Assembly: GCA_028714495.1 (NCBI GenBank) | Contig: JAQTMH010000004.1 | Span: 128,232-192,231 of the forward strand | From: Patescibacteria group bacterium | GTDB taxonomy: Bacteria > Patescibacteriota > Patescibacteriia > JAHIZJ01 | DNA: 64,000 bases | Direction of reading: 5' to 3' | Part shown: in pieces, positions 21,020-60,317 of the stretch | Numbering within the stretch: position 1 is the first letter of the stretch | Layout: each line of letters opens with the position of its first letter | The notes under the pieces: generated by a model | Told to the model about the DNA's origin: nothing | The model's database searches: none | The model's input: only the letters and a program-made list of their open reading frames with translations | Position numbers and translations under genes: made by a program

Positions 21020-21111
21020 GATATTACTCCCTTTAACACGCAGCCGTCTTTTTTTATTTGGGCCAAATGAAGAAATTAAAAATTGATAATTCAAAATTCA
21101 AAATTATTGTT

Positions 21112-21153
21112 GCCCATCTCTCGACTCTGCTCGAGATGGGCTTCTTTCATTTT
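21112..21153 (+). terminator. rho-independent terminator at the centre of a larger palindrome
   Basis: GCCCATCTC…GAGATGGGC followed by TTCTTTCATTTT. Outer arms AAAATTCAAAA / TTTTGAATTTT at 21093-21103 and 21156-21166. Confidence 0.6.
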
Positions 21154-21227
21154 ACATTTTGAATTTTAAATTATTTATACACTAATCTTGAATTGTTAAT
21201 TATTATTGTTTCTTATATAATGAACGC

Positions 21228-22687: not shown

Positions 22688-23500
22688 ATGTCATTATTCC
22701 AAATCCTCGAGGACAAAGCCAAACAAAAACGACGCCGGATTGGAATTTCCATTTTGCGCTGGAATGAACCGATTCGCGCCAGCCTGGAAAAAGCCAAAGC
22801 GATTGCCGACATAATTGTCTATGGCGATCCGCAATTCGGTTTTGACGGCGTGAAAAACGACAATCAGGAAGAGGTTGGTCGTCAGATGGTTCGCGATTTT
22901 AAAGCTGGAAAACTTGATCAGTTCGTCCGGGGTCAAGTAGACGATTTCGGCACCGTGGACGAATATAAAAAACAATTCGGCGTTTTGCCCGAAATGAAGC
23001 GGCTTGGATTTGGGTTGATGCGTGATGCCCATAACCATGAATTTTGGATGATCTTGGTATCGAATCCCGAAGGCCAGACGCTGGAGGACAAAATACGCTA
23101 CATTGACGGGGCGACTAATTGGCTGACTGAAACATTTCCGGAATTTAAACCAAAGGTGGCGGTCATGGCCACTTGCCGGCCAGGCTCATACGGCCGTGAT
23201 CCTGTCATGTCAAGAAGCTATGACGAGGCCGAAGCAGTGGTGAAACATCTGACTGAAAAAGGGATTGAAGCCAAAAACGTCCACATCGAGATTGAAAATG
23301 CCGTAACCTGGGCCAATATTATCATGGCCTCGAACGGCACGATCGGCAATCAGATCTTCCGAGCTGTGATGTACCTCGGTGGCGGCAAGAATCTGGCCTG
23401 CCCGACGGTTTTCCCGGGCTATGGACAATATGAGGATGACAGCCGGAACGAGGAAGACTGGTATCCGCACATCGTGGCAGCCGCGGCGTATGTGAAGTAA
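22688..23500 (+). CDS. hypothetical protein (weak resemblance to a phosphotransacylase-like fold)
   Basis: 270-aa ORF, no confident family call. Confidence 0.35.
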   Translation: MSLFQILEDKAKQKRRRIGISILRWNEPIRASLEKAKAIADIIVYGDPQFGFDGVKNDNQEEVGRQMVRDFKAGKLDQFVRGQVDDFGTVDEYKKQFGVLPEMKRLGFGLMRDAHNHEFWMILVSNPEGQTLEDKIRYIDGATNWLTETFPEFKPKVAVMATCRPGSYGRDPVMSRSYDEAEAVVKHLTEKGIEAKNVHIEIENAVTWANIIMASNGTIGNQIFRAVMYLGGGKNLACPTVFPGYGQYEDDSRNEEDWYPHIVAAAAYVK

Positions 23501-23512
23501 ATCCTAGTAGTA

Positions 23513-23546
23513 AGCGACCCTTAAGGGTCGCTTGCGGGATTTATTG
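23513..23546 (+). terminator. putative hairpin terminator
   Basis: AGCGACCC-TTAA-GGGTCGCT then GCGGGATTTATT. Confidence 0.4.
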
Positions 23547-23706
23547 CAGTGGCTTCGATATTGGACTTACTATAGTTATTTACTTTATAAACTCCCCAAA
23601 CCTCCGTGTTTGGGCTCGAATAATGTTTGTGGCGGCGCTACCTTTACCCGCCTCCGGTTACAGATTTTCAACCTTTTGCTTGATTCATTGTTATAACTTT
23701 CTATCA

Positions 23707-23826
23707 CCAGCTGGGTTAATAAAGGGGGCCTACGGCGGGTTATTTGCCTATGGCTCCGCTTTCGTTTGGACTGAAAATATTGTTAAGGAGCTCTATGATT
23801 GTTGGTGTGAAGGCAAATAAAAAACG
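23707..23826 (+). repeat. copy 1 of a 118-bp near-identical direct repeat (second copy at 35997..36114)
   Basis: 2 mismatches over about 118 bp. Contains a 10-bp long-range complement TTATTTGCCT…AGGCAAATAA, an SD (aaggag) and ATG of a short ORF (MIVGVKANKK…). More diverged homology extends about 65 bp upstream (ACCCGCCTC…). Confidence 0.9.
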
Positions 23827-23908
23827 AGGGCGGAACCTTGTACCGAGTCTGGTACAGGGTCCACCCTCTTGTATTGTTGAAGGTGCAGGCGAGGTTGGTC
23901 AACCTCGC

Positions 23909-25147
23909 TTACAGTTGCATGGCTAGCGCGAGCCAATAGGCCAGCATGAGCGGGAGGACGCGTTCGTCCGGATTGAACACGGGCGTATGATGTCCGTGCC
24001 CGTGGATAGCCTGTTCATCATCAGTGATGCCGCCGGCTCCGATCATCATGTAGTTGCTACGGATGCCGAAATCATGATCGAATCGGCCAAACGATTCTCC
24101 ACCCATGATTTGGGGGCAATCAGTCCAGACTCTGGGCGGAGTAATGACTGTGTTGCTTCTGGCCGCCCAGTTGAGAACGTCACGGGCGGCCTGAGTCGCG
24201 GTTAGGCTGATTGCCGGATCATTAAAGGTCGGGATATGGCCGGTGGGATGATCGATCGTGAGAACCGTGGTGGGGAAGACTTTCCTGAACAGATCAGCGA
24301 TCCTCGCGAGTTGACAGACTGCCTGTTCGTAGTTTTCCCTATCCACGGCGCGGAACGAAACCACGAACTCAAGCCAGGATGGCAGAATATTCGGCGCTTG
24401 GGTCGAAGCAGTTGGTACTGCTGGATGAACCAGGGCGCCTGGTATTGGGTTGAGAATCTCGGCTCGTAATTTGTCTACCCACCAGGAATAGGCGTCAGTG
24501 AGCGAGCCCTTCTGTCTCACTTCGATAGCGTGGCCGCCCTCGCATTCGAGCCGGATTGTAACCCGGTCTGAATGGGCGGTAATGTTGCCAACCCGAGTAG
24601 CAAATGTACCGGTAGGAAACACTCCGCCGAATTCGGGAGCGCTGGTGATTACATGGAGACCGTAGACGGCTGTCAGTCCATCAGCCCCTCTTGCCCGGAT
24701 CAGTTCAGGTTCTCCGCCTGGTGGTATCTCTTCCGCCTGGGTGAAAAGAAGTCTGATGTTTCGGGCGAGAAGATGTCTGTTGGCTGCCAGCACCGTGGCC
24801 GTGGCCAACAGCGCGCCAGTGTGAAAGTCGTGTCCGCAGGCATGCATGACTCCCGGATTCCTGGAAGCACACCGCAGTCCGGTTTTCTCCTGGATCTGCA
24901 GGGCATCCAAATCAGCCCGGAAGCCAATCATGGGTGTTCCAGGAAGGTCGGGGTTAACGATGTCGCAGACAATCCCGCCCTTCAGCTGTCGAGGGTTGAG
25001 TTGACAGCCGTCATTCAAGACGAGGGTTACATGCTCCATCGTCTCTTCTTCTTGCCAGCCCAGCTCGGCGTGCTTGTGGAACCATTGCTGGAGCTGTTTG
25101 GCTAGCTCAACGACTCTGAGATCAACGAGATCCAATACCTGACTCAT
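23909..25147 (-). CDS. M20D-family amidohydrolase/peptidase
   Basis: …MHACGHDFHTGALL…LLFTQAEE…GGEPELIRARGADGL…GLHV… Likely start at MSQVLDL; the ORF-track start at 25330 adds about 60 aa that looks spurious. GC-rich relative to its flanks. Confidence 0.7.
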   Translation of the reverse strand: MSQVLDLVDLRVVELAKQLQQWFHKHAELGWQEEETMEHVTLVLNDGCQLNPRQLKGGIVCDIVNPDLPGTPMIGFRADLDALQIQEKTGLRCASRNPGVMHACGHDFHTGALLATATVLAANRHLLARNIRLLFTQAEEIPPGGEPELIRARGADGLTAVYGLHVITSAPEFGGVFPTGTFATRVGNITAHSDRVTIRLECEGGHAIEVRQKGSLTDAYSWWVDKLRAEILNPIPGALVHPAVPTASTQAPNILPSWLEFVVSFRAVDRENYEQAVCQLARIADLFRKVFPTTVLTIDHPTGHIPTFNDPAISLTATQAARDVLNWAARSNTVITPPRVWTDCPQIMGGESFGRFDHDFGIRSNYMMIGAGGITDDEQAIHGHGHHTPVFNPDERVLPLMLAYWLALAMQL

Positions 25148-25300
25148 GCCGTACCCCCTTTTTCTAGCACATTGTCGAAATAGCCTTCTGATAGTAGAAC
25201 TCGGAAGTATAAAGGGAAAATTGGTTTTTGTCAACACCTTTTGGGTTGAAAATAGGGATTTGTTTTTTTCCATAACTTGTGCTATAATAAACTCACCTTT

Positions 25301-26242
25301 ATGGAAAAAGTTACCCTCCCTTTTAGCCAAATAGGCAGAGAGTCGGTGAAAGAAGCCGGTGGGAAAGGGGCAAACCTTGGTGAATTGACAAAAGCCGGGA
25401 TACCAGTACCTCCAGGTTTCGTAGTATTAGCCTCGACATTCCAAAAATACCTTGAGATTTCAGACCTTGACGTGGAACTTGACTCCATCCTCGACGAACT
25501 GAAGATAAAAGACATCAGTTCGGTTGAGCGCGAATCGAGAAAGATGCGATCTTTGATTGATAAGGCTAAGGTGCCGGCTGAAATTCAAAAAGGAATCCAG
25601 GCGGCTTTTAAGCGATTGGGTGCAAAATTCGTCGCGGTTCGTTCTTCAGCCACGGCCGAAGATTCAAAGGTTGCCTCTTGGGCCGGCGAACTCGATACCC
25701 TCCTTTTTGTTACCCAGCCGGAATTGATTAACGCGGTCAGAAAATGCTGGTCATCGCTCTATACCCCGCGCGCTCTATTTTATCGCTTTGAGAAAAAGCT
25801 TCACCATAAAATGATCCGGGTGGCCGTGGTAGTCCAGAAGATGGTTAATTCAATGGTCTCGGGCATCGCCTTCACGACCCATCCGGTAACTCGCGATCCC
25901 AACCAAATGATTATCGAGGCGGGCTGGGGCCTGGGTGAGGCGATTGTCTCGGGTCAGATTACGCCCGACGCCTATGTTATTGATAAAGAAGATAATTCAT
26001 TCATTGACATAAACGTGAATAAGCAGGAGATGATGATTGTCCAAGCCCGGCCCAAAGGAACAAAGAAAGCGATCGTACCGCGCGCTAAGCAGGCCAAACA
26101 GAAATTGACCAATTCGCAGATTCAGACTCTGGTCGGAATTCTTCGCCGGATCGAAAAGTATTATGGCAGCCCCCAGGATATTGAATGGGCTTATGACGGG
26201 AAATTTTATATCGTTCAAACACGTCCGATAACGACTTTGTAA
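25301..26242 (+). CDS. PPDK_N/PEP-synthase-type ATP-grasp (nucleotide-binding) domain protein
   Basis: …VKEAGGKGANLGELTKAGIPVPPGFVV… The ORF-track start is TTG at 25277; ATG at 25301 is preceded by TATAAT. Confidence 0.6.
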   Translation: MEKVTLPFSQIGRESVKEAGGKGANLGELTKAGIPVPPGFVVLASTFQKYLEISDLDVELDSILDELKIKDISSVERESRKMRSLIDKAKVPAEIQKGIQAAFKRLGAKFVAVRSSATAEDSKVASWAGELDTLLFVTQPELINAVRKCWSSLYTPRALFYRFEKKLHHKMIRVAVVVQKMVNSMVSGIAFTTHPVTRDPNQMIIEAGWGLGEAIVSGQITPDAYVIDKEDNSFIDINVNKQEMMIVQARPKGTKKAIVPRAKQAKQKLTNSQIQTLVGILRRIEKYYGSPQDIEWAYDGKFYIVQTRPITTL

Positions 26243-26252
26243 AAACGTTTAA

Positions 26253-28016
26253 ATGGATTCTTCCGTTTCAAATCAACCAACCTCCAATACTCAAATCAAT
26301 CAGAGGATTGAGACTGTTTTGCAGAGCCAATCGCCCAAAGAAGCCTTAAAGCTTCTTCGGCAAATCGGGGGCCAGGGGATGGGCGAGTTGGGAGTGAATA
26401 TCGAAGCTCAAAAGCAGCGTTTGAGAGTAGTCGCCTTGCCTCTATTACCCACTTCTGAATTTCTTTTGCTTTTCGAGGGCGATTTGCGGGCCACCTTCGA
26501 ATTTAATTTGACTGAACGTTTGAGGACGCGATTGGTGTCACTGCCGCTAGTCTCCCAAGACGAGTTTAAACGAACGATCCTGTCAACGCTTCAAAATAAC
26601 ACGAGCGAATTTGTTTCGGGAGATCAAAATACCGCCCAGAAATGGATTGAAAAGTTTTTAGCCAGCCACCAAAATCCCGATGCGTTTATCGCGGCGGCGC
26701 CAGAATTTAAGTCCCTGACCGTCGAGGATCAGCTCAGAGTTCAAAGGCTTTTGCAGGTAGTCCAGCACGCCCTGATATCAGTTACTACGCCAGAGGGATT
26801 GGAAGATGAAATGATGATTCGGGATGAAACTGGGACTTTCAAAGTTTTAAAAGCGGGCGAATTGGTTGAATTGGGTATTGAGCCACGGGAGAAACCGCCA
26901 GCCGCTCCGCCAATTTCAGCCGTTCCGGCGGCACCTTCACAAATAAAGGCCGAAGTCTCATCATCGCGGCCCATCGCTTCTGTTCCGCCGGCCCCCCTAG
27001 CTGTTAAACCAGTACAAAAAACCCCGGCTGATTTCTACTTTCACCCTGAAGATGAAAATGAAGTGCATGACCACCGTGCCCGTTTGGCAAAAATAGATCC
27101 GATTCCGGAGAGCAATTTTGACACAATTGTCGATCAGCTAGTTAGAGATTTTCATCTAGAATTTTCTGGCCAGCCAATCGCCGATCGGTTTAGGAATATT
27201 ATCAAATCTCGTCTCAATGATGTGCGGGATATAATTGAAACACAAAACATGCTTAGCCGGCCAATCGAGGTAGGCGGCGTGGGCCTTGAAGCCGGCTTGG
27301 CCATGAAGATACTCTCCAAAGTTGAGGAAGAATCTCTAAAGATCCATCAGGCGCATTTAGCCAGAGCCGAACCAACTCCTTTGATTGTCCCAGTGCCCAC
27401 CAAAGCCACACCTCTTCCGCCTGAACCGGGGGATGCGGTGCCGCCAGCCGTGACTGTGCCACCGGTTGTTGAGAAGGTTGTGATACCAAAGGCTCCCCCC
27501 GAGATTCAAAAAATTGAGCCAAAACCGGTTGAACCGACGCCCGAACCTAGGCCGGCCTTAGTTGTTCCGCCAATTCAAAAACCTAAAGAATCGCCCAGAC
27601 CGATTCCCCAAAGAATGAGTGGCACGCCGGTCATTAATAGGCCGATCGAATCAAGCCGTCCGACAGTTTCCGACATCCGGCGTCCGGTTAAAACAATCGG
27701 TCCGGTCCAAGAATTGGTCGAGCTGACTCTGAAGGATTATCGCCGCCTCGGTAAAACAATCGAAGAATCAAACGAGAAGATAATGGAAAAACTAGATTTG
27801 TTAGAGGAGGATTCTTATCTCAAAAGAGCCGAGGGGGTCAAGGCTTGGAAAAGCGGCGAGGTGAACCAACTTTACCTCTCGATCGGGCGTGAAAGCATGG
27901 AAAAAGATTTAGCCGTGATCGATGTGATTCGTAAACGCCGGGAGGACGGGTTGCCTTATCTCACGAAAGAAGAATTTGAAATGGTGGCCGATTTGAATAA
28001 GAAAATAAGTTTCTAA
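26253..28016 (+). CDS. hypothetical Pro-rich protein
   Basis: Long PxP-rich linker (…PTPLIVPVPTKATPLPPEPGDAVPPAVTVPPVVEKVVIPKAPPEIQK…). No TM. Confidence 0.4.
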   Translation: MDSSVSNQPTSNTQINQRIETVLQSQSPKEALKLLRQIGGQGMGELGVNIEAQKQRLRVVALPLLPTSEFLLLFEGDLRATFEFNLTERLRTRLVSLPLVSQDEFKRTILSTLQNNTSEFVSGDQNTAQKWIEKFLASHQNPDAFIAAAPEFKSLTVEDQLRVQRLLQVVQHALISVTTPEGLEDEMMIRDETGTFKVLKAGELVELGIEPREKPPAAPPISAVPAAPSQIKAEVSSSRPIASVPPAPLAVKPVQKTPADFYFHPEDENEVHDHRARLAKIDPIPESNFDTIVDQLVRDFHLEFSGQPIADRFRNIIKSRLNDVRDIIETQNMLSRPIEVGGVGLEAGLAMKILSKVEEESLKIHQAHLARAEPTPLIVPVPTKATPLPPEPGDAVPPAVTVPPVVEKVVIPKAPPEIQKIEPKPVEPTPEPRPALVVPPIQKPKESPRPIPQRMSGTPVINRPIESSRPTVSDIRRPVKTIGPVQELVELTLKDYRRLGKTIEESNEKIMEKLDLLEEDSYLKRAEGVKAWKSGEVNQLYLSIGRESMEKDLAVIDVIRKRREDGLPYLTKEEFEMVADLNKKISF

Positions 28017-28019
28017 TTT

Positions 28020-28478
28020 ATGCCGCAGCAGTTTACTGTGCCACAATTTATCGACGTCGAAGATAAAATATTCGGACCGATTTCAGTCCGGCAGTTCGTG
28101 GTTATTTTGGGCGGCGGGTTTATCGAAATTATCCTGTACTTTGCCTCTCCCTTTGTAGTTTTCATCATTTTGGGCTTGATTGTCCTCGGCCTGATAGTGT
28201 TATTCGCCTTTTTCAAGATAAACGGACAATATTTTCATGTCTTTCTGATCAATTTGGCCACAACCGTACGCCAACCCAAACTTCAGCTCTGGAAGAAATC
28301 ATATGACCCGAAAGAATTGGAGGAGAAGAAAAAAGAAACCGCCCCGCCCGGCATTGTCCCCCCGCGAGCCAGCCCCACTTCCAGCCGCCTCCAGGAATTA
28401 GCCTTGATTGTTGATACCGGAGGAGCCTACGGCGAAGAATCTTGGGAAATAGCAAAAGAAGATAAAGACATCGTTTAA
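28020..28478 (+). CDS. PrgI/VirB3-like small membrane protein of type IV secretion systems
   Basis: …FIDVEDKIFGPISVRQFVVILGG… followed by 2 TM helices. Directly upstream of VirB4. Confidence 0.45.
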   Translation: MPQQFTVPQFIDVEDKIFGPISVRQFVVILGGGFIEIILYFASPFVVFIILGLIVLGLIVLFAFFKINGQYFHVFLINLATTVRQPKLQLWKKSYDPKELEEKKKETAPPGIVPPRASPTSSRLQELALIVDTGGAYGEESWEIAKEDKDIV

Positions 28479-28490
28479 ATCTCATAACTT

Positions 28491-29162
28491 ATGGCCAAAC
28501 AAAAAGCCATCGCCTCGCCCACCCAGAAACACGTTCCGATCGCTGAGATTCGGGATAATACGGTAGTACTTAAAGACGGCACGGTCCGAGCCGTAATTTT
28601 GGTTTCCTCAATCAATTTCGCTCTCAAATCCGAGGACGAGCAAAACGCCATTATTCAGGCCTACGTTGAGTTTTTAAACTCTTTTGAATTTCCCGTTCAA
28701 ATTCTGATTCAATCGCGAAAGTTGGATATTGATGAGTATCTCGAACGCTTGGATAAAACTGAAAAAGAACAGACCAATGAGCTTTTAAAAATGCAGACGC
28801 GGGAGTACCGTAAGTTTATCGCGGAGCTGATCGAGATGGCCGACATTATGAGCAAACGTTTTTACGTGGTGGTACCATTTGATCCTCAGTACCAGAAGAA
28901 AGCTAAAAAATTCCTCGACCGGGTAAAAGAACTCTTTGCCCCAAGCAAAGTTATTCAGCTCAAGCGCAGCCAATTTGAAAAATATCGCACAGAATTATCG
29001 AAGCGAGTTGATTTTTTGGTCAGCGGTCTTGGGGCAATGGGTTTGAAGGCGGTGGCCCTCGATACCCAGAGCTTGATTGAACTATATTACAATACTTACA
29101 ATCCGGAGACCTATGATCAGCAGCAGCTCGTGCCGGTAGAAAAGTTACAAATCGAAAACTAA
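28491..29162 (+). CDS. VirB4/TrbE N-terminal-domain protein (split VirB4, part 1)
   Basis: …HVPIAEIRDNTVVLKDGTVRAVILVSSINF…EDEQNAI… like the N-terminus of VirB4/CagE. Stop TAA is 1 nt before the next ATG. Confidence 0.5.
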   Translation: MAKQKAIASPTQKHVPIAEIRDNTVVLKDGTVRAVILVSSINFALKSEDEQNAIIQAYVEFLNSFEFPVQILIQSRKLDIDEYLERLDKTEKEQTNELLKMQTREYRKFIAELIEMADIMSKRFYVVVPFDPQYQKKAKKFLDRVKELFAPSKVIQLKRSQFEKYRTELSKRVDFLVSGLGAMGLKAVALDTQSLIELYYNTYNPETYDQQQLVPVEKLQIEN

Positions 29163-29163
29163 T

Positions 29164-31089
29164 ATGGCTAATATCAATTTATCCAAACAAGCCCAACCAG
29201 TTCAGGAACAAGTCGGACCAAAGCCGGCCCTCTCGACCCAAGAAAAAAAAGAAGTTGAGACGGGCGCGATTGAACGCGAGAAGCGGGCAATCGAAGCCGA
29301 GCGGATCTACCGAGAAGGCGTGGTGACGATTCAGGACTTGATTGCCCCGCCGGCCCTCAAGGTAATGCCGAATTATATTGAACTGGGCGGCAAATTTATC
29401 CGGACAATATTTGTTACGACCTATCCGCGCTTTGTCTCGGTTGGCTGGTTTGCTCCGATAGTCAATTTAAATCTAACGCTGGATATCGCGATGTTCTTTT
29501 ACCCGATCAGCTCGGATATCATATTGAAGCAACTTCGGAATAAAGTAGGCGCCCTCGAAGCCCAGATCATGGGTGACGCGGAAAAGGGATCAGCCCGCGA
29601 TCCGATGATTGAAACGGCGCTCCGGGACGTGGAGAAGCTCCGGGACGATTTGACCCAGGGAATGGAAAAATTTTTCCAATTCGCGCTCTACGTGACGATC
29701 TATGCCGATTCGCTGAAAGAATTAAACGAACTTTCGGATCGGATTGAAGGCATGTTTGGTTCGCGACTAGTCTACAGCAAGCGAGTTTATTATCAGGCTG
29801 AACAGGGTTTTAATACCACCTTGCCATTGGCGACTGATCTGCTGAATATTGCTTTCAATATGAACACCTCGCCCTGCGCGTCGTCTTTTCCTTTCATTTC
29901 TTCCGAATTGACCTCTGACAACGGCATTCTCTACGGCATCAATCGGCACAATAACAGCCTGATTCTTTTCGATCGCTTCAGCCTCCAGAATGCCAATTCC
30001 TGCGTTTTTGCCACCTCGGGCGCGGGCAAAAGCTATGCCGTGAAACTGGAAGTTCTGCGCAGCCTGATGCTTGGCACTGACGTCATCATTATTGATCCGG
30101 AAAAAGAATACAAATATCTCTCTGACGCGGTTGGGGGAGCCTACGTTAATATCTATTTAAATTCTGATTCCAAAATAAATCCTTTTGATCTGCCGCGGCC
30201 CGTGGGCGAAGCCGACAAGCCGGCCGACATCATTCGTTCGGCGGTCATAACGCTGAAAGGGCTGATGCGCCTGATGTTGGGAGAATTTACTCATGAGGAA
30301 GATTCATTAGTTGACCGGGCTTTGATTGAAACCTATGCCAAGAAAGACATCACGGCCGACTCCGACCTGACTAAAATTGAGGCGCCTCTGATGTCCGATT
30401 TCGAAGAAGTGCTTTCGGGCATGGAGGGCGGCGATCAGCTGGTCAAACGTTTGAAGAAATATACCGAAGGTACGTTCTCCGGTCTCTTTAATAGCCCCAC
30501 CAATATCGACGTCAAAAACCAGCTGGTCATATTCAGCGTGCGCGACTTGGAAGACGAGCTAAGACCGATCGCCATCTATATTATTGTCAATTACATCTGG
30601 AACATAGTCCGCTCCGAGCTGAAAAAGAGAATTATGGTAATTGATGAAGCCTGGTGGCTGATGCAAAACGAAGATTCAGCCAAATTTATCTATGCCCTGG
30701 TCAAACGTTGCCGCAAATACTACCTCGGTGTTACTACCATCACCCAGGACGTAAATGATTTCTTGCGCTCGCCCTACGGTCAGGCGATTGTCACCAATTC
30801 CTCGCTTCAGCTGCTGCTTAAGCAATCACCGGCCGGGGTTGATATCTTGGCCAAAACATTTCTTCTGACCCAGGGAGAGAAATATCTGCTGCTGGAGTGC
30901 GGTGTCGGCGAGGGGATTTTCTTTGCCGGGGCTCGACACGCCGCCATCAAAGTAGTCGCTTCCTATACCGAGGACCAGGTGATAACTTCCGATCCAAAAC
31001 AGCTCTTGGAGATCGAGGCGGCGAAAAAGGAATTTGAACAATCAATGGCCGATGATGAAGGGGTTGAATCAGCCGCGCCCAGGTCCTAA
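29164..31089 (+). CDS. VirB4-like type IV secretion ATPase (split VirB4, part 2)
   Basis: Walker A ATSGAGKSY, Walker B MVIDEAWWLM, …ITQDVNDF…. Confidence 0.7.
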   Translation: MANINLSKQAQPVQEQVGPKPALSTQEKKEVETGAIEREKRAIEAERIYREGVVTIQDLIAPPALKVMPNYIELGGKFIRTIFVTTYPRFVSVGWFAPIVNLNLTLDIAMFFYPISSDIILKQLRNKVGALEAQIMGDAEKGSARDPMIETALRDVEKLRDDLTQGMEKFFQFALYVTIYADSLKELNELSDRIEGMFGSRLVYSKRVYYQAEQGFNTTLPLATDLLNIAFNMNTSPCASSFPFISSELTSDNGILYGINRHNNSLILFDRFSLQNANSCVFATSGAGKSYAVKLEVLRSLMLGTDVIIIDPEKEYKYLSDAVGGAYVNIYLNSDSKINPFDLPRPVGEADKPADIIRSAVITLKGLMRLMLGEFTHEEDSLVDRALIETYAKKDITADSDLTKIEAPLMSDFEEVLSGMEGGDQLVKRLKKYTEGTFSGLFNSPTNIDVKNQLVIFSVRDLEDELRPIAIYIIVNYIWNIVRSELKKRIMVIDEAWWLMQNEDSAKFIYALVKRCRKYYLGVTTITQDVNDFLRSPYGQAIVTNSSLQLLLKQSPAGVDILAKTFLLTQGEKYLLLECGVGEGIFFAGARHAAIKVVASYTEDQVITSDPKQLLEIEAAKKEFEQSMADDEGVESAAPRS

Positions 31090-31121
31090 GCCTGGATAAT
31101 TTGACTTATTAAAATAAATTT

Positions 31122-31760
31122 ATGAAAGGTTTCCGGATTATCATCATCATTATAGGAGTCTTAGTGGTTTTGTCGGCGATAATTTTGGTAGTGACGCGTT
31201 TCACGGGTTCATCAAAGAATGACAACGCCAACACCGGGAACACAAACAACACCCAGATTATCAACAACACCGCTCCGGCTAACAATAATACGAACCAAAC
31301 CGCTAATTCGAATAATGCTAACACCAACTCAGGTAACAATACCAACAAAAATACCAATACCGCGCCAGTTACTCCAACTGGCGAGGCAAGCTTAAAAGCC
31401 ACGGCCCGGAGTTTCGCCGAGCGCTTCGGCACCTTTTCAAATTACAGCGATTACGAAAACGTCGAGCACTTACTGCCCTACATGACCCAGCGGATGAAGA
31501 AATGGGCGAATAAGTACATCGAAGAACAAAGAGCCAAACCGCCCTATACCGGCATTTACAGCGGAACCACGACCAAGGCCTTATCGGTAAAAACCTCAAG
31601 TTTTGAGGAAGCTGCCGGTACGGCCGAATTTCTAGTCAGCACCCAGCGCAAGGAATCAACCGGCACGACTTCCAACGCTCGCATATATTATCAAGACATC
31701 AAGATAAAGTTTGTTAAAGAGCAGTCAGTTTGGAAAGTTGATGAGGCCTGGTGGCAATAA
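31122..31760 (+). CDS. membrane-anchored hypothetical protein (N-terminal TM, Asn/Thr-rich linker, globular C-domain)
   Basis: ORF architecture only. Confidence 0.4.
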   Translation: MKGFRIIIIIIGVLVVLSAIILVVTRFTGSSKNDNANTGNTNNTQIINNTAPANNNTNQTANSNNANTNSGNNTNKNTNTAPVTPTGEASLKATARSFAERFGTFSNYSDYENVEHLLPYMTQRMKKWANKYIEEQRAKPPYTGIYSGTTTKALSVKTSSFEEAAGTAEFLVSTQRKESTGTTSNARIYYQDIKIKFVKEQSVWKVDEAWWQ

Positions 31761-31769
31761 AATCCTGAC

Positions 31770-32501
31770 ATGGCAAGCCCTTCAGATAATTTAAACAACC
31801 AACCAGGAAGGCCAAGGGGATCTTCAAAAGACATTAAAAACCGGACTGGAAAATCGCGTTCTCCAGGAGAAAATATCAATCGGCAAAAAGGCCGGTTGCC
31901 TGAAAACCAGATGGGTTTGGACAGGCAAAGGGGCAGGGATTTTCGAACCCGAGAACGACAGGCGGAATCCATGGGTTCTCCATTAAGCCCGGCAGGTATT
32001 CAAGGCCGGCTAGGTAACGTCTTGAATCGTTCAGTCGATGATTTTGATAGTCGTCGGACCATCGGTGGCCTTCGCGGGCAGAGCACGGCGGGGATGAAGG
32101 ACGATATCACAAGTCCGGCTGAGCAGAGAGCGGCCAGCCGGCGGATGGGCAGCGCTAAGGCTCAAGCGGCTCAAGCCGCGGTTCAAGCCATAGCCGAAGG
32201 TGAGGGGAAAGGACAGGTGGCTGAAGCGGCCGCGGCGGCAGCGCTCGAAGCTAAAAAAATACAGCAATTTCGATTAATTTTGTTGGCTATCAGAGGCGGC
32301 AGCGCGATTACAGTCGTCGGCATCATTATCACGATTCTTATCTGGGGCATTCAGCTGATCGTCGGCCATATCATGGGCCATGAAAAATGGAAGATGTCGA
32401 AGTGGGAACTGCCCTTCGCGATAATCATCTGGGTATTAGTATTTTTTGCTGTCGTGGTGCAGTTTAGTATTTGGGCATTGTACCTGAAGATTATTCAATA
32501 A
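31770..32501 (+). CDS. hypothetical membrane protein with Arg-rich disordered N-terminus and C-terminal TM helices
   Basis: ORF architecture only. Confidence 0.4.
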   Translation: MASPSDNLNNQPGRPRGSSKDIKNRTGKSRSPGENINRQKGRLPENQMGLDRQRGRDFRTRERQAESMGSPLSPAGIQGRLGNVLNRSVDDFDSRRTIGGLRGQSTAGMKDDITSPAEQRAASRRMGSAKAQAAQAAVQAIAEGEGKGQVAEAAAAAALEAKKIQQFRLILLAIRGGSAITVVGIIITILIWGIQLIVGHIMGHEKWKMSKWELPFAIIIWVLVFFAVVVQFSIWALYLKIIQ

Positions 32502-32553
32502 TACTGTCGGACTGATACTGTTTTAAATTCGCTATATTAGCTATAATGCTTAT

Positions 32554-33693
32554 ATGAGAAAAAATCCAAAAACCAAGGCTTTTATTCTGGGTTTAGGTCT
32601 GGCGATTGTCTTGACCGGTTTGATTATTATTCCGGCGGCCAGCGTCCCTGGTCTGGTCAGCCAGGCTCGGGCTGCCAGTGATTCAAGCGTGCCCCCGCCC
32701 TGCAATCAGTGTGGTGAAGGTCAAATTTGTTTAAATGTCTGGATTAACACTTGGTGTGTAACAAATCTGGCGGAGTATATATCAATATTTTATCGATACT
32801 TTATTGGGATAATCGGAATATTCGCGGTCGCCATGATAATGTTCGGAGGATTCAAATGGATTACCGCCAGCGGTAATTCTGAAAAGATCAACCAGGCCAA
32901 GGATAATATCACCTCAGCCATTATCGGCGTAGTTATCGCGTTGTTTTCTTACGTCCTGCTTCAGACCATTAATCCGATGATCACTTCGTTAAAGAGTGAC
33001 ATATCCGGTATCACCGGGATAGAAGGCGCCTATTCGCAAATTTGCCAGAATCTGTATGGAGCTGGCTGGCAGGCCAAGGTTGGCAAAGGGGCTGATTTTA
33101 ACGCAGAATGCGGCGATGAGTTGGATATAATAGACGCTGCGGGAAACCCTACGGGCGTCAAGTGCTATGGTGGACATTGCGCAGAGGGTCAAATATGCGG
33201 CTTCTCGGTAATGAGTGGTTATAAATGTGGTACTCCAAAAAAATTATGCGAAGATACCGATAAAACTAAATGCCGACAGACTGATTCGATAATCAAGGCG
33301 TCGCAAGCAGAGGGCGCCATTGATTATGGCTGCGCGAAAAGAATTGATAATACTTGGTCAATAACCGGCCTTTATGCCGCTGAAGGCGCTGACGAATGCG
33401 TTTACAACCCGGTAATAAAGAAAGAACAATGGGAGGCGGCCGGGTACGAAAGAGTAAATTGTGGAGAATCGGAAGCAAAAAATAGATGTTGGTATATGCC
33501 GGGCAATGCAAAAATGCCAGCCTGTAAAACTGTTGGCGTTAATATCCCTCTTATAGGTTATTTACAAATTGACGCTAGAATGCGTTGTTGTACTGATTCT
33601 GAACGGCCAATAGTTGGAGCCAACACCGTTTGCGTCAGGAAGGTGGGCCTGCCGCCGAACGATCCTGAATCATATACTCTCTGGGAGCCGTAA
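32554..33693 (+). CDS. Cys-rich TrbC/VirB2-like pilin-like membrane protein with large Cys-rich C-terminal domain
   Basis: Signal peptide, PPCNQCGEGQICLN, helix 1, loop …SGNSEKINQAKDN…, helix 2, then ~230-aa domain with about 20 Cys. Confidence 0.4.
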   Translation: MRKNPKTKAFILGLGLAIVLTGLIIIPAASVPGLVSQARAASDSSVPPPCNQCGEGQICLNVWINTWCVTNLAEYISIFYRYFIGIIGIFAVAMIMFGGFKWITASGNSEKINQAKDNITSAIIGVVIALFSYVLLQTINPMITSLKSDISGITGIEGAYSQICQNLYGAGWQAKVGKGADFNAECGDELDIIDAAGNPTGVKCYGGHCAEGQICGFSVMSGYKCGTPKKLCEDTDKTKCRQTDSIIKASQAEGAIDYGCAKRIDNTWSITGLYAAEGADECVYNPVIKKEQWEAAGYERVNCGESEAKNRCWYMPGNAKMPACKTVGVNIPLIGYLQIDARMRCCTDSERPIVGANTVCVRKVGLPPNDPESYTLWEP

Positions 33694-33722
33694 TATTTAG
33701 TAGACTTTTCGGAATAATTTAA

Positions 33723-34964
33723 ATGACTCTTTCACCAAGGACCAAAAAAATAATTTTCATTAGCCTGGTTGTTATCGTGACTGGCTTGTTAGCCTACGGT
33801 ATTTATTTTCTATTTTTCCAGCAGCTCATAACGCCGGAAAATGAAAATAAAAACGCTAACGGAAATGTGAATGGAGGAACATTGCCGAATACGAACGTCA
33901 ATCGTTTAGTCAACCGAAATACCAACGTGAACACCAACGGCGCGACGAACTTACCCCAAATATCTGATATTGCCAATGGCGGATTGACCAAGGTGACTGA
34001 CGTGGCTGATGTGGCCGTGGAAGCTGGGGCGCCGACGAGCGACCGGACCGGCTACGTCTATTACGATTCGGCGACGCATAAGTTTTACCAGATATTAGCC
34101 AATGGCGAGCGTGTCGAGCTTTCAGATAAAGAGTTTTATGACGTAGCCAATGTGGCCTGGTCGCCGGACCGCAATCAGGCGATTATGGCCTATCCTGACG
34201 GCAGTAAAATATATTACAATTTTAAAAGCGGCCAGACCGTCACCTTGCCGAAGGAGTTAAATGACGTGCATTTTTCCGAGGCCGGAGATAAAATTGCCTA
34301 CGAATTTCTGGGCGAGGAGGAAAACGAGCGCTGGCTGGCCATAGCCAACCCTGACGGCAGCGGACAGCAAATACTCGAACCGCTCGGCGATCGCGACAAC
34401 CGCGTCGAAGTCAATATGTCTCCGGATGCCCAGGTGGTGGGTATTTATCGCGAGGGGATCGGCGTCGATCAGGAGGAGATTTATTTCCTGGGCCAGCACG
34501 GCGAGAATTTTAAATCAATGGTGGTTGACGGGGCTGGTTTTGAAGGCCAGTGGACGCCCCAAGGCGATAAGCTGCTTTACAGCGTTTATAATTCAGAAAG
34601 TGATTATAAGCCGGAATTGTACATTGTAGACGCCCGGGGAGAGAATATTGGTTTAAATAAGCTAGATCTGGATTTGAACACCTGGTCTGACAAATGCGCC
34701 TTTTCCGGATCGAGTCTTTACTGCGCCGTGCCAAATGATTTGCCGACTGGCGCCGGATTGGACCCGAGCTTAGCCAGCCAAACGACTGACAGTTTTTACC
34801 AAGTAAATCTAGAAACAGGCCAGAAGTCCTTATTGGCCATACCCTATTCGGGCTCCAGTCAGATCGGCTATTCGGCCGAAGGCGTCTATCTCTCGCTTGA
34901 CGGCAGTTACCTGTACTTTCGCAATGCTCTCACGGGCAAGCTTGATAAGATACAGATAAAATAA
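33723..34964 (+). CDS. membrane-anchored beta-propeller (TolB-like) protein
   Basis: N-terminal TM, Asn-rich linker, repeated …Y(Y/V)…S(P)DG… blades. Confidence 0.45.
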   Translation: MTLSPRTKKIIFISLVVIVTGLLAYGIYFLFFQQLITPENENKNANGNVNGGTLPNTNVNRLVNRNTNVNTNGATNLPQISDIANGGLTKVTDVADVAVEAGAPTSDRTGYVYYDSATHKFYQILANGERVELSDKEFYDVANVAWSPDRNQAIMAYPDGSKIYYNFKSGQTVTLPKELNDVHFSEAGDKIAYEFLGEEENERWLAIANPDGSGQQILEPLGDRDNRVEVNMSPDAQVVGIYREGIGVDQEEIYFLGQHGENFKSMVVDGAGFEGQWTPQGDKLLYSVYNSESDYKPELYIVDARGENIGLNKLDLDLNTWSDKCAFSGSSLYCAVPNDLPTGAGLDPSLASQTTDSFYQVNLETGQKSLLAIPYSGSSQIGYSAEGVYLSLDGSYLYFRNALTGKLDKIQIK

Positions 34965-34973
34965 TCAAAAAAT

Positions 34974-35714
34974 ATGGCAGAAAAACCCATTCAAACGCAC
35001 ACCAAGGTTAAAACAGCGGTAGTTGTCACCATCGGGGTTATCGCCTTTTTAGTAATCGCCTTGCTAATCGTAATATTTAGGAACGTGATCGCTGAAGGAT
35101 TATTCAGCCGGGTAAAAGTTACCTATGAAGGAATGTATAATCCATTCGTAATCTCAGGCAATGCCCTGGTGACTGCCGCGGAAAAAGAAATCTCCGGCCA
35201 GCCGGAACTCCGGCCGACTGATCCGACGCAAGGTTCAAGCAGTCCGAAAATAAAGATTTTTGAATTCGGGAGTTTTAATAGCGGTTACTCGGCTGCCGCC
35301 CAAAGCGTAGTGGAACAAATAGTAACGGATTATGGTGGCGAAGTTCAGATTATCTGGAAAGATTATTTTGACCAAACCGACTCAATCGCCAGGCTCGGCG
35401 CCGAAGCAGCACGGTGTGGCCAACAGCAAAATAAATTTTGGGAAATGCAAAAAGTGATTTATCAAACCCAGGGGGGATTTACCAGGGACAAGCTGATTGA
35501 GTTGGCGAAGGGTTTAAATCTGAACCTAGACAATTTTAATAGTTGCCTGGATAAAAAAGAAGTTGACGGCGTAATAGACCAAAATATCAGCGAAGCGATC
35601 CAGCTACACTTGCCTGGCGCTCCGATATTCTTCGTGGATGATAAAGTGCTGAAAGGCGTAGTGACTTACCGGGAGTTTGAAGCGCTGGTGAAACAGGAAT
35701 TGAAGGGTAAATAG
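34974..35714 (+). CDS. DsbA-like thioredoxin-fold protein lacking the catalytic CXXC motif
   Basis: Aligns with the bona fide DsbA at 40184..40909 (…KFWEM…), but CPAC is replaced by NSGY (FEFGSFNSGYSAA). Confidence 0.55.
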   Translation: MAEKPIQTHTKVKTAVVVTIGVIAFLVIALLIVIFRNVIAEGLFSRVKVTYEGMYNPFVISGNALVTAAEKEISGQPELRPTDPTQGSSSPKIKIFEFGSFNSGYSAAAQSVVEQIVTDYGGEVQIIWKDYFDQTDSIARLGAEAARCGQQQNKFWEMQKVIYQTQGGFTRDKLIELAKGLNLNLDNFNSCLDKKEVDGVIDQNISEAIQLHLPGAPIFFVDDKVLKGVVTYREFEALVKQELKGK

Positions 35715-35996
35715 CTGCCAGAGAATTCAAAATGTAAAATGCAAAATTTAGGTTGCCGCCGTAGGCGGATACCAACATTTTTAATTTTGAGTTTCTTCCC
35801 TGACCCAACGGATTTCGTATACTTTTATCCGAGGATCTTTGCCGGTGGTATACAGCGATACCCGCCCAGCAGTCATGCCGGACTTGATCCGGCATCTCCA
35901 TTATCAACCCGAGGTGAATAATTATATAGACCATACCCGCCTCTGGTTGGTACTTAATCAGCCTTACCTATTTTCATTATCCATCTAGCTTTTTCC

Positions 35997-36114
35997 AGCT
36001 AGGTTAATAAAGGGGGCCTACGGCGGGTTATTTGCCTATGGCTCCGCTTTCGTTTGGCCTGAAAATATTGTTAAGGAGCTCTATGATTGTTGGTGTGAAG
36101 GCAAATAAAAAAAG
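35997..36114 (+). repeat. copy 2 of the 118-bp direct repeat
   Basis: See 23707..23826. Confidence 0.9.
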
Positions 36115-36230
36115 ACGGCAGGTGTCGTCTCGACATGGGTATCATGGGTGCCAAAGCCGGGCTTTGACTTGGGGGATTCTAATCCCGATACCTGTCATAT
36201 GAGACGATAACTGCCGTTATGTGCCGGAAG

Positions 36231-36629
36231 CTACGCTAGAGCTGGCACAGCCGCCTCGGTCGCCATGGACGCACGCGCGTCAGGTACGGGGCTGACCCGG
36301 AGGTCAAAGGGCTCGGCACCGCAGGCGCGGATGAGCTCTTCATCACCACCGAGAAAGACTACCCGTCTGGCGGGATTGACCATGTGTCCGGCCCGATTCC
36401 TGTACGGCTGCGTAGAGGCGAGCCAGTTGGTCAGACTGAGGTTACCCTCGGACGCGACCACGCCGCACACCTTGCCGGGTCGGACTTCGTTGGAGCAGAC
36501 CTCCAGGTCTCTGATTGTGTTCGGACTGCCTGCCACAGCGAATCTGATACCGGGTGTGTGCGTGTGACTGCCATCTTTGCCATTAACGTGATTGAAACAG
36601 CACATGTGGATCTCCCGATCTTTGTACAA
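36231..36629 (-). pseudogene. decayed M20D amidohydrolase paralog fragment in a GC-rich segment
   Basis: …HMCCFNHVNG…SHTHT… and …RRVVFLGGDEELIRACGAEPFD… parallel …MHACGHDFHT… and …RLLFTQAEE…ELIRARGADGL… of the intact M20D gene. Several overlapping ORFs on both strands, none convincing. Confidence 0.3.
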
Positions 36630-37008
36630 CCCTTCCTGGGTTGTGGGTTTAGAAGAGGACCTCCTTACCTCCGTGTGGTTGTAATAGCCCTAGTCAGGTG
36701 AACTTATTCTTCATCCAACCCCTCCTTCCCCTCTTCGAAGTTCTGATCCTGGCAGTGCCTGGCACTGCTCCAGCCTGGTTCCTCCTCGGGAAAAAGTGGG
36801 GGAGAGCGCGGCAGTTGACAAATGGCGTTGGCTTGGATACGTGGAGATCGGGAGAAGACCACGATACCCATTGCCCAGCGCCTTACTTGTTCATACGTGT
36901 CCGGCTCTCCCATAAACCTGTTTATCTCTAGAAGAGAGGTACTCGATAACCCAGAATACAAAGAGCGTATTTTTATAATACGCTAATTTGCTAATATGTC
37001 AAGCTGGG

Positions 37009-58819: not shown

Positions 58820-58923
58820 AAAGATATATCAATTAGGTCTTTCATCAGAATAATTAAACATTGTTGCCTTTTAGGCCGGTTCTAGAGCGGCTGAAAAGGC
58901 CGATCCCGAAGGGAGGTGAAAAA

Positions 58924-60213: not shown

Positions 60214-60317
60214 AAAACTATGTCAATTAGTTCTTTTGTCAGAATAATTAAACATTGTTGCCTTTTAGGCCGGTTCTAGAGCGGCTGAAAAGGCCGATTC
60301 CGAAGGGAGGTGAAAAA

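Follow-up and report, generated by a model that had tools for sequence, protein, structure and literature searches.

A near-identical 125-nt direct repeat beside two terminators in a Patescibacteria genome, possibly part of a small non-coding element copied between sites

The 64-kb stretch of Patescibacteria DNA analysed here (the window) contains two copies of a 125-nt sequence in direct orientation, copy 1 at 23707-23831 and copy 2 at 35995-36119 (plus strand), offset by 12288 nt. The copies are identical at 121/125 positions (97%; blastn E 4e-57), the four mismatches being 23713 G/A, 23770 A/C, 23825 C/A and 23828 G/C. The original prediction of a 118-bp near-identical direct repeat therefore described a real repeat, although three differences, and not two, fall within that 118-nt span. 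Three Logan contigs (L001, L002 and L091, sample SRR22315509) terminate within the repeat, L002 and L091 inside copy 2, as is expected of a true repeat. Copy 1 adjoins an intact M20-family amidohydrolase gene (M20D) on the minus strand (23909-25147; PF01546, E 3.8e-25), which is GC-rich as anticipated (56.2% versus 47.0% for the window). The segment next to copy 2 (36120-36960) was likewise correctly described as GC-rich (56.4%) and harbors orf124 (36231-36605, minus strand), which belongs to a small conserved protein family with no assigned function. In four related genomes this family maps between recG and DsbA, the position likewise occupied by the homologues P0002, P0010 and P0012 (104-113 aa).

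Sequence identity falls sharply at 23707/35995, from 97% to roughly random, and the repeat is the sole significant DNA match between the two regions in blastn. The weaker homology proposed earlier for about 65 bp upstream proved to be real but short, consisting of a 15-mer some 47 nt upstream with a 1-nt shift between the copies (M block; TACCCGCCTCCGGTT at 23645-23659 and TACCCGCCTCTGGTT at 35934-35948, plus strand), while the similarity of the copies between and beyond the 15-mer is not significant (shuffle p 0.28 and 0.94). The 15-mer of copy 1 is also present at L004 4537-4550 and, with a C>T change, in L087, a near-conspecific. Taken together with the surrounding features, each 125-nt copy may well be the terminator-side module of a non-coding element of approximately 270-300 nt that lies in fixed orientation between convergent terminators. 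The approximate limits of these elements on the plus strand are 23547-23813 for el1, between the terminator tails of a 270-aa gene and M20D, and 35801-36100 for el2, between an AT-rich terminator segment after DsbA and the orf124 terminator tail; el2 shows homology to the L004 element in its left part (z 6.8).

The element contains three imperfect palindromes. In one of them ACCCGCC of the M block (23645-23659) is complementary to GGCGGGT at 23735-23741, which lies within the C block (CCTACGGCGGGTTATTT; 23729-23745 and 36017-36033, plus strand), the block with the widest conservation in the family, with relatives found twice in L004 (CCTGCGGCGGGTTATTT) and as variants in L097 and L089. The second is an imperfect hairpin of 81 nt (23740-23820 and 36028-36108, plus strand) with the perfect 10-bp inverted repeat TTATTTGCCT / AGGCAAATAA; in L004 and L097 the corresponding TTATTTAC / GTAAATAA enclose an interior that is unrelated to the hairpin interior of the window. 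The third is hairpin H1 of el2 (ATGCCGGA-cttga-TCCGGCAT; 35875-35895, plus strand), which reads ATGCTGAA-tttat-TTCAGCAT in L004 and L097 and thus differs from the window by two compensatory pairs, and a different hairpin (23595-23614) occupies the equivalent position in el1. No Rfam match was found.

In both copies the conserved end abuts the tail TTTTTTATTTGCC of the terminator of the neighboring minus-strand gene, and the T-tract tail at the module edge has the form TTTTTTATTT[G/A]C[C], belonging to M20D at copy 1 and to orf124 at copy 2. The intrinsic terminator hairpin of M20D (23826-23868, minus strand) is followed by the T-tract tail GTTTTTTATTTGCC (23813-23826), which is the edge of copy 1, so that this copy ends in 13-19 nt native to the M20D terminator, namely its A-tract/T-tract tail; L004, L005, L088 and L089 contain orthologues of both the hairpin and the tail. 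At copy 2 the edge is the tail TTTTTTTATTTGCC of the orf124 terminator, which has the arm GAGACGACACCTGCCGTC (36101-36131, minus strand). A third terminator, located after a NifU-like gene (21033-21061, plus strand), matches the orf124 terminator in arm and tail (GCCGTCTTTTTTTATTTG, 18/18 positions identical) and is free of the element; at the corresponding position L089 carries a family member. The tail motif is rare, as T{5,}ATTT followed by G occurs five times on the two strands of the window, with an element at two of the five.

Related genomes have both occupied and empty sites. In GCA_964594455.1 diverged element copies are present at both sites (L004, the M20D site, and L097, the orf104 site), each comprising two element units in a tandem composite arrangement. 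L004 and L097 have about 65% identity in their 5' parts and 95.6% in a terminator-side module of 136 nt that extends to the tail GGTAAATAAAAA, beyond which each sequence runs into the terminator of its own site. Because this 136-nt module is unrelated to the 125-nt module of the window, the similarity exists within genomes and not between them. Another family member lies at a third locus (L089/L090 9921-10100), beside the tail GTTTTTTATTTAC of the terminator of another gene. M20D is present at the equivalent site in L004, L005, L087, L088 and L089 and absent in L085. The intergenic region at this site measures 408 nt in the window and 410 nt in L087, where the orthologue of copy 1 is 98% identical over the entire region, but approximately 105-127 nt in L005, L088 and L089, in which the terminator tails abut and the site is clean and empty with its tail intact. 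Similarly, the orf site is empty with an intact tail in L096 (CTGCCGTCTTTTATTTGCC followed directly by TAGAATC) and in L003. The family is small, with two copies in the window and members in only a few related Patescibacteria, and most relatives keep homologues of M20D and orf124 without the element.

These observations make it quite plausible that the 125-nt stretches are copies of a small non-coding element beside terminators that has been copied repeatedly between two sites. Recent copying of this kind would account for the 97% identity of 125 nt next to the near-random remainder of the element, and it could have proceeded by gene conversion starting from the common terminator tail or by renewed insertion at the same target. 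The earlier suggestion that gene conversion has kept the element nearly identical fits the sharp drop in identity at 23707/35995, a pattern that recurs independently in GCA_964594455.1. When L087 is used as outgroup to infer the ancestral state of copy 1, a single core position separates copy 2 from it. Copying is favored over long-term purifying selection since the module is not conserved between genomes, and the presence of another recently homogenised pair of paralogous segments in the window indicates that such copying operates in this genome. The element itself may be mobile, and it could be selfish or neutral towards the genes around it instead of contributing to the T4SS-like cluster. 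However, the diverged 5' parts fit poorly with the idea that the entire element simply transposed recently, and several precise losses or parallel gains would be needed for both sites to be filled in the lineages of the window and of GCA_964594455.1, which are roughly equidistant. Neither a transposase (Y1/RAYT, DDE) nor an integrase, a reverse transcriptase or another recombinase was found among the window ORFs scanned, and the element ends showed no clear terminal inverted repeats and no target-site duplication.

Several other explanations were weighed against copying of the element. It had been proposed that an old segmental duplication comprised M20D together with its downstream element, and that the second M20D copy decayed into 36120-36960. 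Both regions are GC-rich and share the motif GGxxELIRAxGA, in which GGEPELIRARGAD of orf124 and GGDEELIRACGAE of M20D are identical at 9 of 13 residues, and Smith-Waterman scores of 48-51 exceeded those of shuffles (30-31 +/- 4.7, p about 0.004), although this applied to the window's own M20D only, the comparisons of orf124 with the M20D orthologues in L004 and L005 not being significant (p 0.06-0.88). The likeness spans 13-17 residues at most. A tblastn search of M20D against the region gave 22 bits, blastn revealed no DNA homology to the M20D gene and only the repeat itself as a match, no Pfam match, to M20 or otherwise, was obtained for orf124, and hhalign assigned probabilities of 2.2% and 1.4% over 16-17 aligned columns. 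Moreover, orf124 lacks the metal-binding HxD and catalytic EE motifs, and its family, present at that locus in four other genomes, displays a coding substitution pattern (codon-position differences of 31/22/46% between orf124 and P0002, with all indels in-frame). The supposedly decayed M20D reading beside copy 2 reduces to one shared motif in a gene with its own coding family, and the duplication model is close to refuted. A similarly slight probability attaches to the repeat being the C-terminal coding part of a small protein, for which the candidate is a 65-aa ORF (23623-23820) ending in ...GLFAYGSAFVWTENIVKELYDCWCEGK. Both the window and L087 keep this frame uninterrupted, its stop codon immediately precedes the A-tract, and the product would include a hydrophobic stretch rich in glycine. 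In copy 2, however, it is broken by a TAG that precedes the repeat by three codons and has no start codon after it, and the 15-mer sits in another frame; the reading is not kept in L004, the differences from L087 are five non-synonymous and one synonymous, and a six-frame search of the repeat found no homologue in 5.8 billion proteins, so that the coding reading was rejected.

The repeats were also suggested to be att-like ends of a mobile T4SS region, and more generally they could be recombination substrates, att-like or RecA-dependent, through which the 12.3-kb block M20D - PPDK_N - T4SS-like - DsbA is excised, lost or tandemly amplified. Their direct orientation would agree with this, as would the fact that two genomes have both bracketing sites occupied by a near-identical module particular to that genome, and frequent exchange would then keep the repeats identical, yet both propositions appear improbable. 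Relatives without the repeat show the order M20D - PPDK_N - T4SS-like - DsbA - recG as ordinary synteny of the chromosome (L005 has the gene order from PEP-utilizer to recG with neither copy), and the T4SS - DsbA - recG order is retained at other Patescibacteria loci. The T4SS of Patescibacteria is reported to be a ubiquitous chromosomal system that is mostly relaxase-less (PMC12102498), no recombinase gene accompanies the block in the window ORFs scanned, and the third family member in L089 sits at an unrelated site. L084 lacks the block and has the 270-aa gene directly beside recG, but this represents a different arrangement and not an empty site because its recG fragment is only 52% identical and orf124 is missing. 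Less remote, though still rather unlikely, is a pair of functional RNA modules, either paralogous small RNA genes or plus-strand antisense promoter/leader modules with transcription entering M20D and orf124 from their 3' ends; that the copies stay alike because both must match the same partner is doubtful to a comparable degree. The two compensatory pairs in H1 could point to a functional RNA, as could the ACCCGCC/GGCGGGT helix kept in all members and the C>T change found in L087 and unit A of L004, which leaves a G-U pair on the plus strand only. RNAalifold predicted 54 pairs (-37.9 kcal/mol) for the plus strand and 37 pairs (-31.6) for the minus strand, a promoter-like CTGAAA-17-TATGAT within both copies is directed at M20D and orf124, and intergenic regions of 400-500 nt are kept at the same two sites in two genomes despite genome streamlining. 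Nevertheless, the 120-nt core folds no better than shuffled sequences (z -0.25 and -0.56), and only an 85-nt hairpin does so (z -2.2 and -3.7), a result that is strand-symmetric, while the sequences are too few for meaningful covariation statistics. A plus-strand terminator is missing after copy 2, the terminator-side module differs between genomes, Rfam offers no match, and most relatives retain M20D and orf124 homologues without the element.

Among known systems, a credible if contestable assignment is to a REP/MITE-like family of terminator-associated elements whose copies in a given genome are homogenised through gene conversion or re-insertion. The REP/BIME sequences of Proteobacteria are repetitive extragenic palindromes that are mobilised by RAYT Y1 transposases, an individual REP being 20-40 nt long and copy numbers ranging from tens to hundreds. 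Like these, the present elements are non-coding imperfect palindromes at gene 3' ends between convergent genes, occur in tandem composites (the two units in L004 and L097), keep hairpins through compensatory change and vary in presence among relatives. In contrast, they are about 270-300 nt long with long variable loops, number two in 64 kb with no RAYT gene found, and do not conserve a GTAG-like tetranucleotide by the stem (GTAG, GCAG, AAAG). MITE-type repeats include ERIC/IRU (127 bp) and the Correia elements, which the 125-nt core resembles in its size, long imperfect hairpin, intergenic location, near-identical within-genome copies and empty sites in relatives; it differs in that no terminal inverted repeats or target-site duplications were found at the element ends and that only the terminator-side module is near-identical, the remainder having diverged. 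We know of no parent IS element for the repeat. Miniature elements derived from IS200/IS605 (PATEs) and group IIC introns insert in one orientation beside hairpins or terminators, and the elements described here share with them an orientation-specific position directly behind the hairpin and T-tract of a terminator (...ATTT[G/A]C followed by the element), subterminal hairpins and the absence of a target duplication. However, their ends are approximate, neither TnpA, TnpB nor a reverse transcriptase was found nearby among the window ORFs scanned, and group II intron domains are absent (no Rfam match). With attL/attR pairs of integrative elements they have in common that the repeats are direct, have an identical core and flank a gene block of 12.3 kb, but no integrase was found among the window ORFs scanned, the block is core synteny in repeat-less relatives and a further member occupies an unrelated site. 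Finally, multi-copy small RNA genes subject to gene conversion differ from the present copies in that copy 2 has no canonical plus-strand terminator and the body is not conserved between genomes, but they are similar in forming stand-alone units between terminators with a near-identical body and a diverged upstream part containing one conserved motif.

The two copies of the repeat, at 23707-23831 (copy 1) and 35995-36119 (copy 2), lie in direct orientation 12,288 bp apart and are identical at 121 of 125 positions (96.8%; blastn E 4e-57), the four mismatches being 23713 G/A, 23770 A/C, 23825 C/A and 23828 G/C. The predicted direct repeat bracketing the T4SS-like module was thus confirmed, its extent being 125 nt, and it represents the sole significant DNA similarity that blastn detected between both neighbourhoods. 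Three short-read Logan contigs from sample SRR22315509 (L001, L002 and L091), which are 100% identical to the window, each stop within a repeat copy, since a true repeat makes a de Bruijn assembly break inside it; short-read assemblies are consequently interrupted by the repeat at either border of the T4SS-like cluster. The weaker homology proposed to continue upstream was retained in part: a 15-mer, TACCCGCCTC[C/T]GGTT, is found approximately 47 nt 5' of each copy (23645-23659 and 35934-35948, with a 1-base register shift), while the similarity of the stretch between 15-mer and repeat and of the sequence farther upstream did not exceed that of shuffled sequences (p 0.28 and 0.94, respectively).

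Copy 1 is situated between a 270-aa gene on the plus strand (22688-23500) and an intact M20-family amidohydrolase gene, M20D, on the minus strand (23909-25147; PF01546, E 3.8e-25), in agreement with the original prediction for this GC-rich gene. Copy 2 is situated between a DsbA-like gene on the plus strand (34974-35714) and orf124, a small minus-strand ORF of 124 aa, or 132 aa with a longer start (orf132; 36231-36605/36629), beyond which recG follows on the minus strand (37009-39090). With plus-strand left and minus-strand right neighbours at both copies, both intergenic regions are therefore convergent. Upstream of each element, the plus-strand neighbour has a terminator of its own (23510-23535 for the 270-aa gene and a hairpin at 35755-35768 for the DsbA-like gene). 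On the other side, the minus-strand neighbours M20D and orf124 each end in a hairpin, and its T-tract (minus-strand GTTTTTTATTTGCC or TTTTTTTATTTGCC) supplies the right-hand boundary of the repeat. The organism belongs to the Patescibacteria (CPR), and its nearest GTDB relatives, identified through VirB4 homologues, are annotated as Patescibacteria or Kerfeldbacteria. In five of the compared loci (L004, L005, L087, L088 and L089), M20D is flanked by the 270-aa gene and PPDK_N, and its GC content was higher than that of its own genome in every case measured. Because gene order near the 270-aa gene differs, PPDK_N following that gene directly in L085 (4001-5907) with M20D missing, M20D is a clade-specific insertion. 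In L084 (4001-5333), the next gene after the 270-aa gene is recG, on the opposite strand. Moreover, the pair of PEP-utilizer and 270-aa genes is present in tandem duplicate in some relatives (L004 1-4370, L089 2165-9428), and L089 carries an additional M20-family gene (455 aa) adjoining these genes, which suggests that the genes surrounding M20D form a variable cluster. The window and L087, a near-conspecific MAG (GCA_028717285.1), share a backbone that is 96-100% identical, but identity falls to about 50% in the PEP-utilizer gene and to 65-75% in parts of M20D (21300-22650 and 23950-24250), a mosaic that suggests allele replacement via recombination.

Reading of the orthologous intergenic regions shows that the 125-nt repeat belongs to a longer element. 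From the 270-aa gene to M20D, the intergenic sequence comprises just 105-127 nt or so in L005, L088 and L089, where the two terminator tails abut, and 408 nt in the window. The corresponding 410 nt in L087 are 98% identical to the window, which is in line with the identity of the genomic backbone, and an exceptional conservation of this region was therefore rejected. In L004 (contig CAZQLY010000011.1 of GCA_964594455.1) the region spans 422 nt with two tandem diverged units, which share with the window the 15-mer (ACCCGCCTCTGGTT), the core CCTGCGGCGGGTTATTT, present twice, and the tail GGTAAATAAAAAAAG adjoining the orthologous M20D terminator. The left part of the element holding copy 2 (35801-35994) is clearly homologous to this L004 element (z 6.8), while the left part of the element holding copy 1 is not (z 0.9). 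Within the former, the hairpin H1 (35875-35895) is formed by ATGCCGGA/TCCGGCAT and in L004 by ATGCTGAA/TTCAGCAT, corresponding to two compensatory pairs.

A homologue of orf124, P0012, led to a second contig of the L004 assembly (CAZQLY010000005.1, L097), in which the 508-nt intergenic region between orf104 and the DsbA gene holds that genome's second copy of the element. Comparison of the M20D site (L004) with the orf site (L097) revealed about 65% identity in the 5' parts, where H1 is fully conserved, and a terminator-side module of 136 nt that is 95.6% identical up to the tail GGTAAATAAAAA, beyond which each copy has its own terminator. GCA_964594455.1 belongs to a different genus-level lineage than the window (VirB4 87%, recG 72%), and its homogenised module is unrelated to the module of the window, although the pattern is the same. 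In the window, copy 2 differs from the ancestral copy 1, as reconstructed with L087 as outgroup, at one core position, and the last copying event in this lineage was therefore recent. The likeness of the module within genomes and its unlikeness between genomes argue for recurrent copying rather than long-term sequence constraint, and the earlier remark that gene conversion acts on the element is thereby supported. The terminator-side module might be homogenised through gene conversion that starts from the common tail or, alternatively, through a new insertion into the same target.

A further member of the family was found in L089/L090 (9921-10100; ACCCGCC...AGTATTGGGCTTTGGCGGGTT), adjoining the tail GTTTTTTATTTAC of a terminator that belongs to a 178-aa gene upstream of a PEP-utilizer gene. 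The equivalent site in the window, the terminator of a NifU-like gene (21033-21061), is free of the element, and its terminator arm and tail are identical to those of orf124 at 18/18 positions. At the orf site, L096 (CTGCCGTCTTTTATTTGCC followed directly by TAGAATC) and L003 lack the element and retain an intact tail, so that presence/absence polymorphism with intact empty sites extends over L005, L088, L089, L096 and L003. The terminator-tail motif is rare in the window, where the element occupies two of its few instances, and the orientation of the element relative to the abutting terminator is identical in every case. Since all carriers and non-carriers are about equally distant from the window, the distribution demands multiple precise losses or else recurrent gains. 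In total, the element was counted twice in the 64 kb of the window and at two sites in GCA_964594455.1, and L089 adds a third kind of site; a few further kb of the source contig, reached through exact-protein look-ups, contained no additional copy. Inspection of the junctions revealed neither terminal inverted repeats nor a target-site duplication, and a Y1 transposase was likewise not detected in the window. The GTDB representative genomes, in which the best VirB4 match is 87%, and the JGI metagenomes contained no exact match to a 25-mer from the repeat, two patterns had none in IMG/VR, and the first element had no blastn match among phage and plasmid records. Likewise, blastn and nhmmer searches with the element against 83 loci recovered only the Logan contigs from the same population; the diverged members in L004, L097 and L089 were found by sequence reading and a motif regular expression.

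The original prediction had explained the repeat by an old segmental duplication, in which the GC-rich segment 36120-36960 was a decayed second copy of M20D. The resemblance of orf124 to M20D consists of one motif (GGEPELIRARGAD versus GGDEELIRACGAE), and a Smith-Waterman comparison with M20D of the window scored above shuffles (p ~0.004), but comparisons with the M20D orthologues of L004 and L005 showed no excess over shuffles. M20D has no nucleotide similarity to 36120-36960 and reached only 22 bits in tblastn, Pfam including the M20 profile (PF01546) had no match in orf132 or its relatives P0002, P0010 and P0012, and hhalign aligned 16-17 columns of the orf124 family with M20D at a probability of 2.2% with two sequences and 1.4% with four. 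The H-x-D metal-binding motif and the catalytic Glu-Glu of M20 enzymes are not collinear in orf124, the best local alignment placing MHACGHD opposite KVC--GVVASE and QAEE in a gap. Signs of pseudogene decay such as frameshifts or stops are absent from orf124, whose reading frame is intact. In addition, the ORF is 58% identical to P0002, encoded after recG in L003, with differences of 31/22/46% at codon positions 1/2/3 and in-frame indels only, and an exhaustive profile search recovered two further family members, P0010 (E 2.7e-21) and P0012 (E 4.6e-12), each encoded between recG and DsbA in its own genome. The family (104-124 aa; window 36231-36605, minus strand; L003 851-1189; L096 5001-5342; L097 5001-5315) shares the motifs MC[RC]..., CGVVA and GG[DN]xELIxxxGxxPFD and directly follows recG in four related genomes, with DsbA as the next gene in the two whose flank is available, L096 and L097. 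Taken together, no DNA similarity, no Pfam match and an intact frame with a coding pattern speak against a decayed M20D, and orf124 is instead an independent gene belonging to an unannotated small protein family. A protein of 917 aa retrieved by the representative search (P0011) was discounted as a low-complexity tandem-repeat protein; no solved structure in the PDB matched the family, and the AlphaFold model of orf124 (mean pLDDT 38) was unusable.

The alternative offered with that explanation, namely that the repeats are att-like boundaries of a mobile region carrying the T4SS-like genes, has in its favour the nearly identical core in direct orientation at both ends, as in attL/attR of integrative elements. 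However, no integrase or other recombinase was found inside or adjoining the interval, nor any transposase or reverse transcriptase, among the scanned window ORFs (Pfam) and the gene lists of overlapping contigs. Furthermore, relatives do not exhibit a missing interval with a single site: in a synteny comparison of eighty loci around VirB4 homologues, L005 displayed the gene order of the window (PEP-utilizer - 270aa - M20D(-) - PPDK_N - ... - VirB4 - ... - DsbA - recG(-)) with neither repeat present, other loci likewise kept the interval free of the repeat, and the order T4SS - DsbA - recG was retained in more distant loci. These results contradict the att-like reading. The T4SS of Patescibacteria has been described as a ubiquitous chromosomal system from which the relaxase is mostly absent (PMC12102498).

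The non-coding flanks of orf124 (36120-36230 and 36704-36916, minus strand) are 80-87% identical to L003 and thus better kept than the ORF itself. The 3' flank contains nested helices (ACGGCAG/CTGCCGT, TCGTCTC/GAGACGA and GGTATC/GATACC) and two hairpins with a T-tract at the end, its outer helix also occurring in L096 and L097, and the 5' flank, in which no reading frame is retained in L003, contains a hairpin (36752-36768) with a compensatory change. These flanks may represent structured leader and trailer RNAs.

At the level of the product, an encoded protein can be set aside, because a 65-aa ORF that overlaps copy 1 is broken in copy 2 and not conserved in L004; relative to L087 it carries five non-synonymous changes and one synonymous change. 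Six-frame translations of the repeat matched nothing in the protein collection at E <= 10, and Rfam gave no match at gathering score and only chance-level matches at E up to 10. RNAalifold predicted 54 pairs (-37.9 kcal/mol) on the plus strand and 37 pairs (-31.6) on the minus strand, so that the plus strand is slightly favoured by the predicted structure, and a G-U pair survives the C>T changes of L087 and of L004 unit A on the plus strand only. The stability of the 120-nt core was at the level of shuffled sequences (z -0.25 and -0.56), and an 85-nt hairpin closed by a perfect 10-bp inverted repeat (TTATTTGCCT/AGGCAAATAA) alone exceeded background, on both strands. In L004 and L097 the closing helix is formed by TTATTTAC/GTAAATAA around a different interior, and it is not retained in L089. 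Covariation among only six sequences comprises the two compensatory pairs of H1, a further one in the closing helix and two changes that leave a G-U pair; predicted promoter-like sites within the element are of consensus level only. The indications of a functional RNA are accordingly suggestive but thin. Several known classes were rejected, including an integron attC site (AAATAAC...GTTATTT occurs in L004 only, is off the RYYYAAC...GTTRRRY consensus and is missing from the window copies, and no integrase was found), a DGR TR/VR pair (the mismatches between the copies are not adenine-confined, and no reverse transcriptase was found), group II introns and retrons, each of which failed a defining feature, and a riboswitch or leader, as there is no downstream gene on either strand.

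According to the best-supported reading, the repeats belong to a small family of palindrome-rich, non-coding elements that lie between convergent terminators, beside one particular tail, and whose presence varies at orthologous sites across related Patescibacteria. The family resembles REP/BIME or MITE-type repeats and terminator-targeting miniature elements, but we do not assign it to any of these, because no transposase, terminal repeats or target duplication were found and copies were counted in 64 kb only. A functional reading, as paired RNA/antisense modules or as a recombination module for the T4SS-like block, is less likely but gains plausibility because two genomes carry the element at the same pair of bracketing sites. 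One form of it holds that the two elements are a co-evolving cis-acting pair at the ends of the M20D - T4SS-like - DsbA block, kept identical within each genome by joint function, either as matched recombination or looping sites (for excision, amplification or insulation of the cluster) or as twin antisense promoters or leaders co-regulating the GC-rich minus-strand genes M20D and orf124; we consider this improbable, and know of no such paired-module mechanism described in Patescibacteria. In these small, compact genomes repeats and long intergenic regions are uncommon, and to our knowledge their non-coding elements have hardly been characterised. The repeat finding is real and modestly interesting: the family is specific to one kind of terminator tail, occupies the same two T4SS-flanking sites in two divergent genomes and is homogenised in each, and it therefore lends itself to the study of concerted evolution, or of site-specific miniature mobile DNA, in Patescibacteria. 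Moreover, 125 bp of direct homology could delete or amplify the T4SS-like cluster, and two attractive but wrong readings, the M20D pseudogene and the mobile T4SS island, have been removed.

Other repeated sequences were also observed. AT-rich quasi-palindromes (aattcaaaat ... GC hairpin ... attttgaatttt) at 21061-21180 and 35725-35800, in L003 (1320-1410) and in L005 (16535-16650) are recurrent in intergenic regions of several related genomes and may be bidirectional terminators. An inversion model, based on the match of the L003 sequence past the terminator of orf112 to 21043-21174, was dropped because this segment is quasi-palindromic, which makes its orientation uninformative, and recurs after DsbA (35725-35800) and in L005. 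Downstream of the orf112 region, L003 (ENA contig) contains a unit of about 190 nt in two tandem copies (1565-1900). Finally, a second recent repeat pair in the window (58785-59084/60179-60478, 300 nt at 98%; 59281-59541/60669-60929, 261 nt at 94%) extends over the sequences upstream of two paralogues of about 200 aa (58861-59469 and 60255-60857) and over both gene ends; the paralogues adjoin type IV pilus genes and are more variable in the middle.
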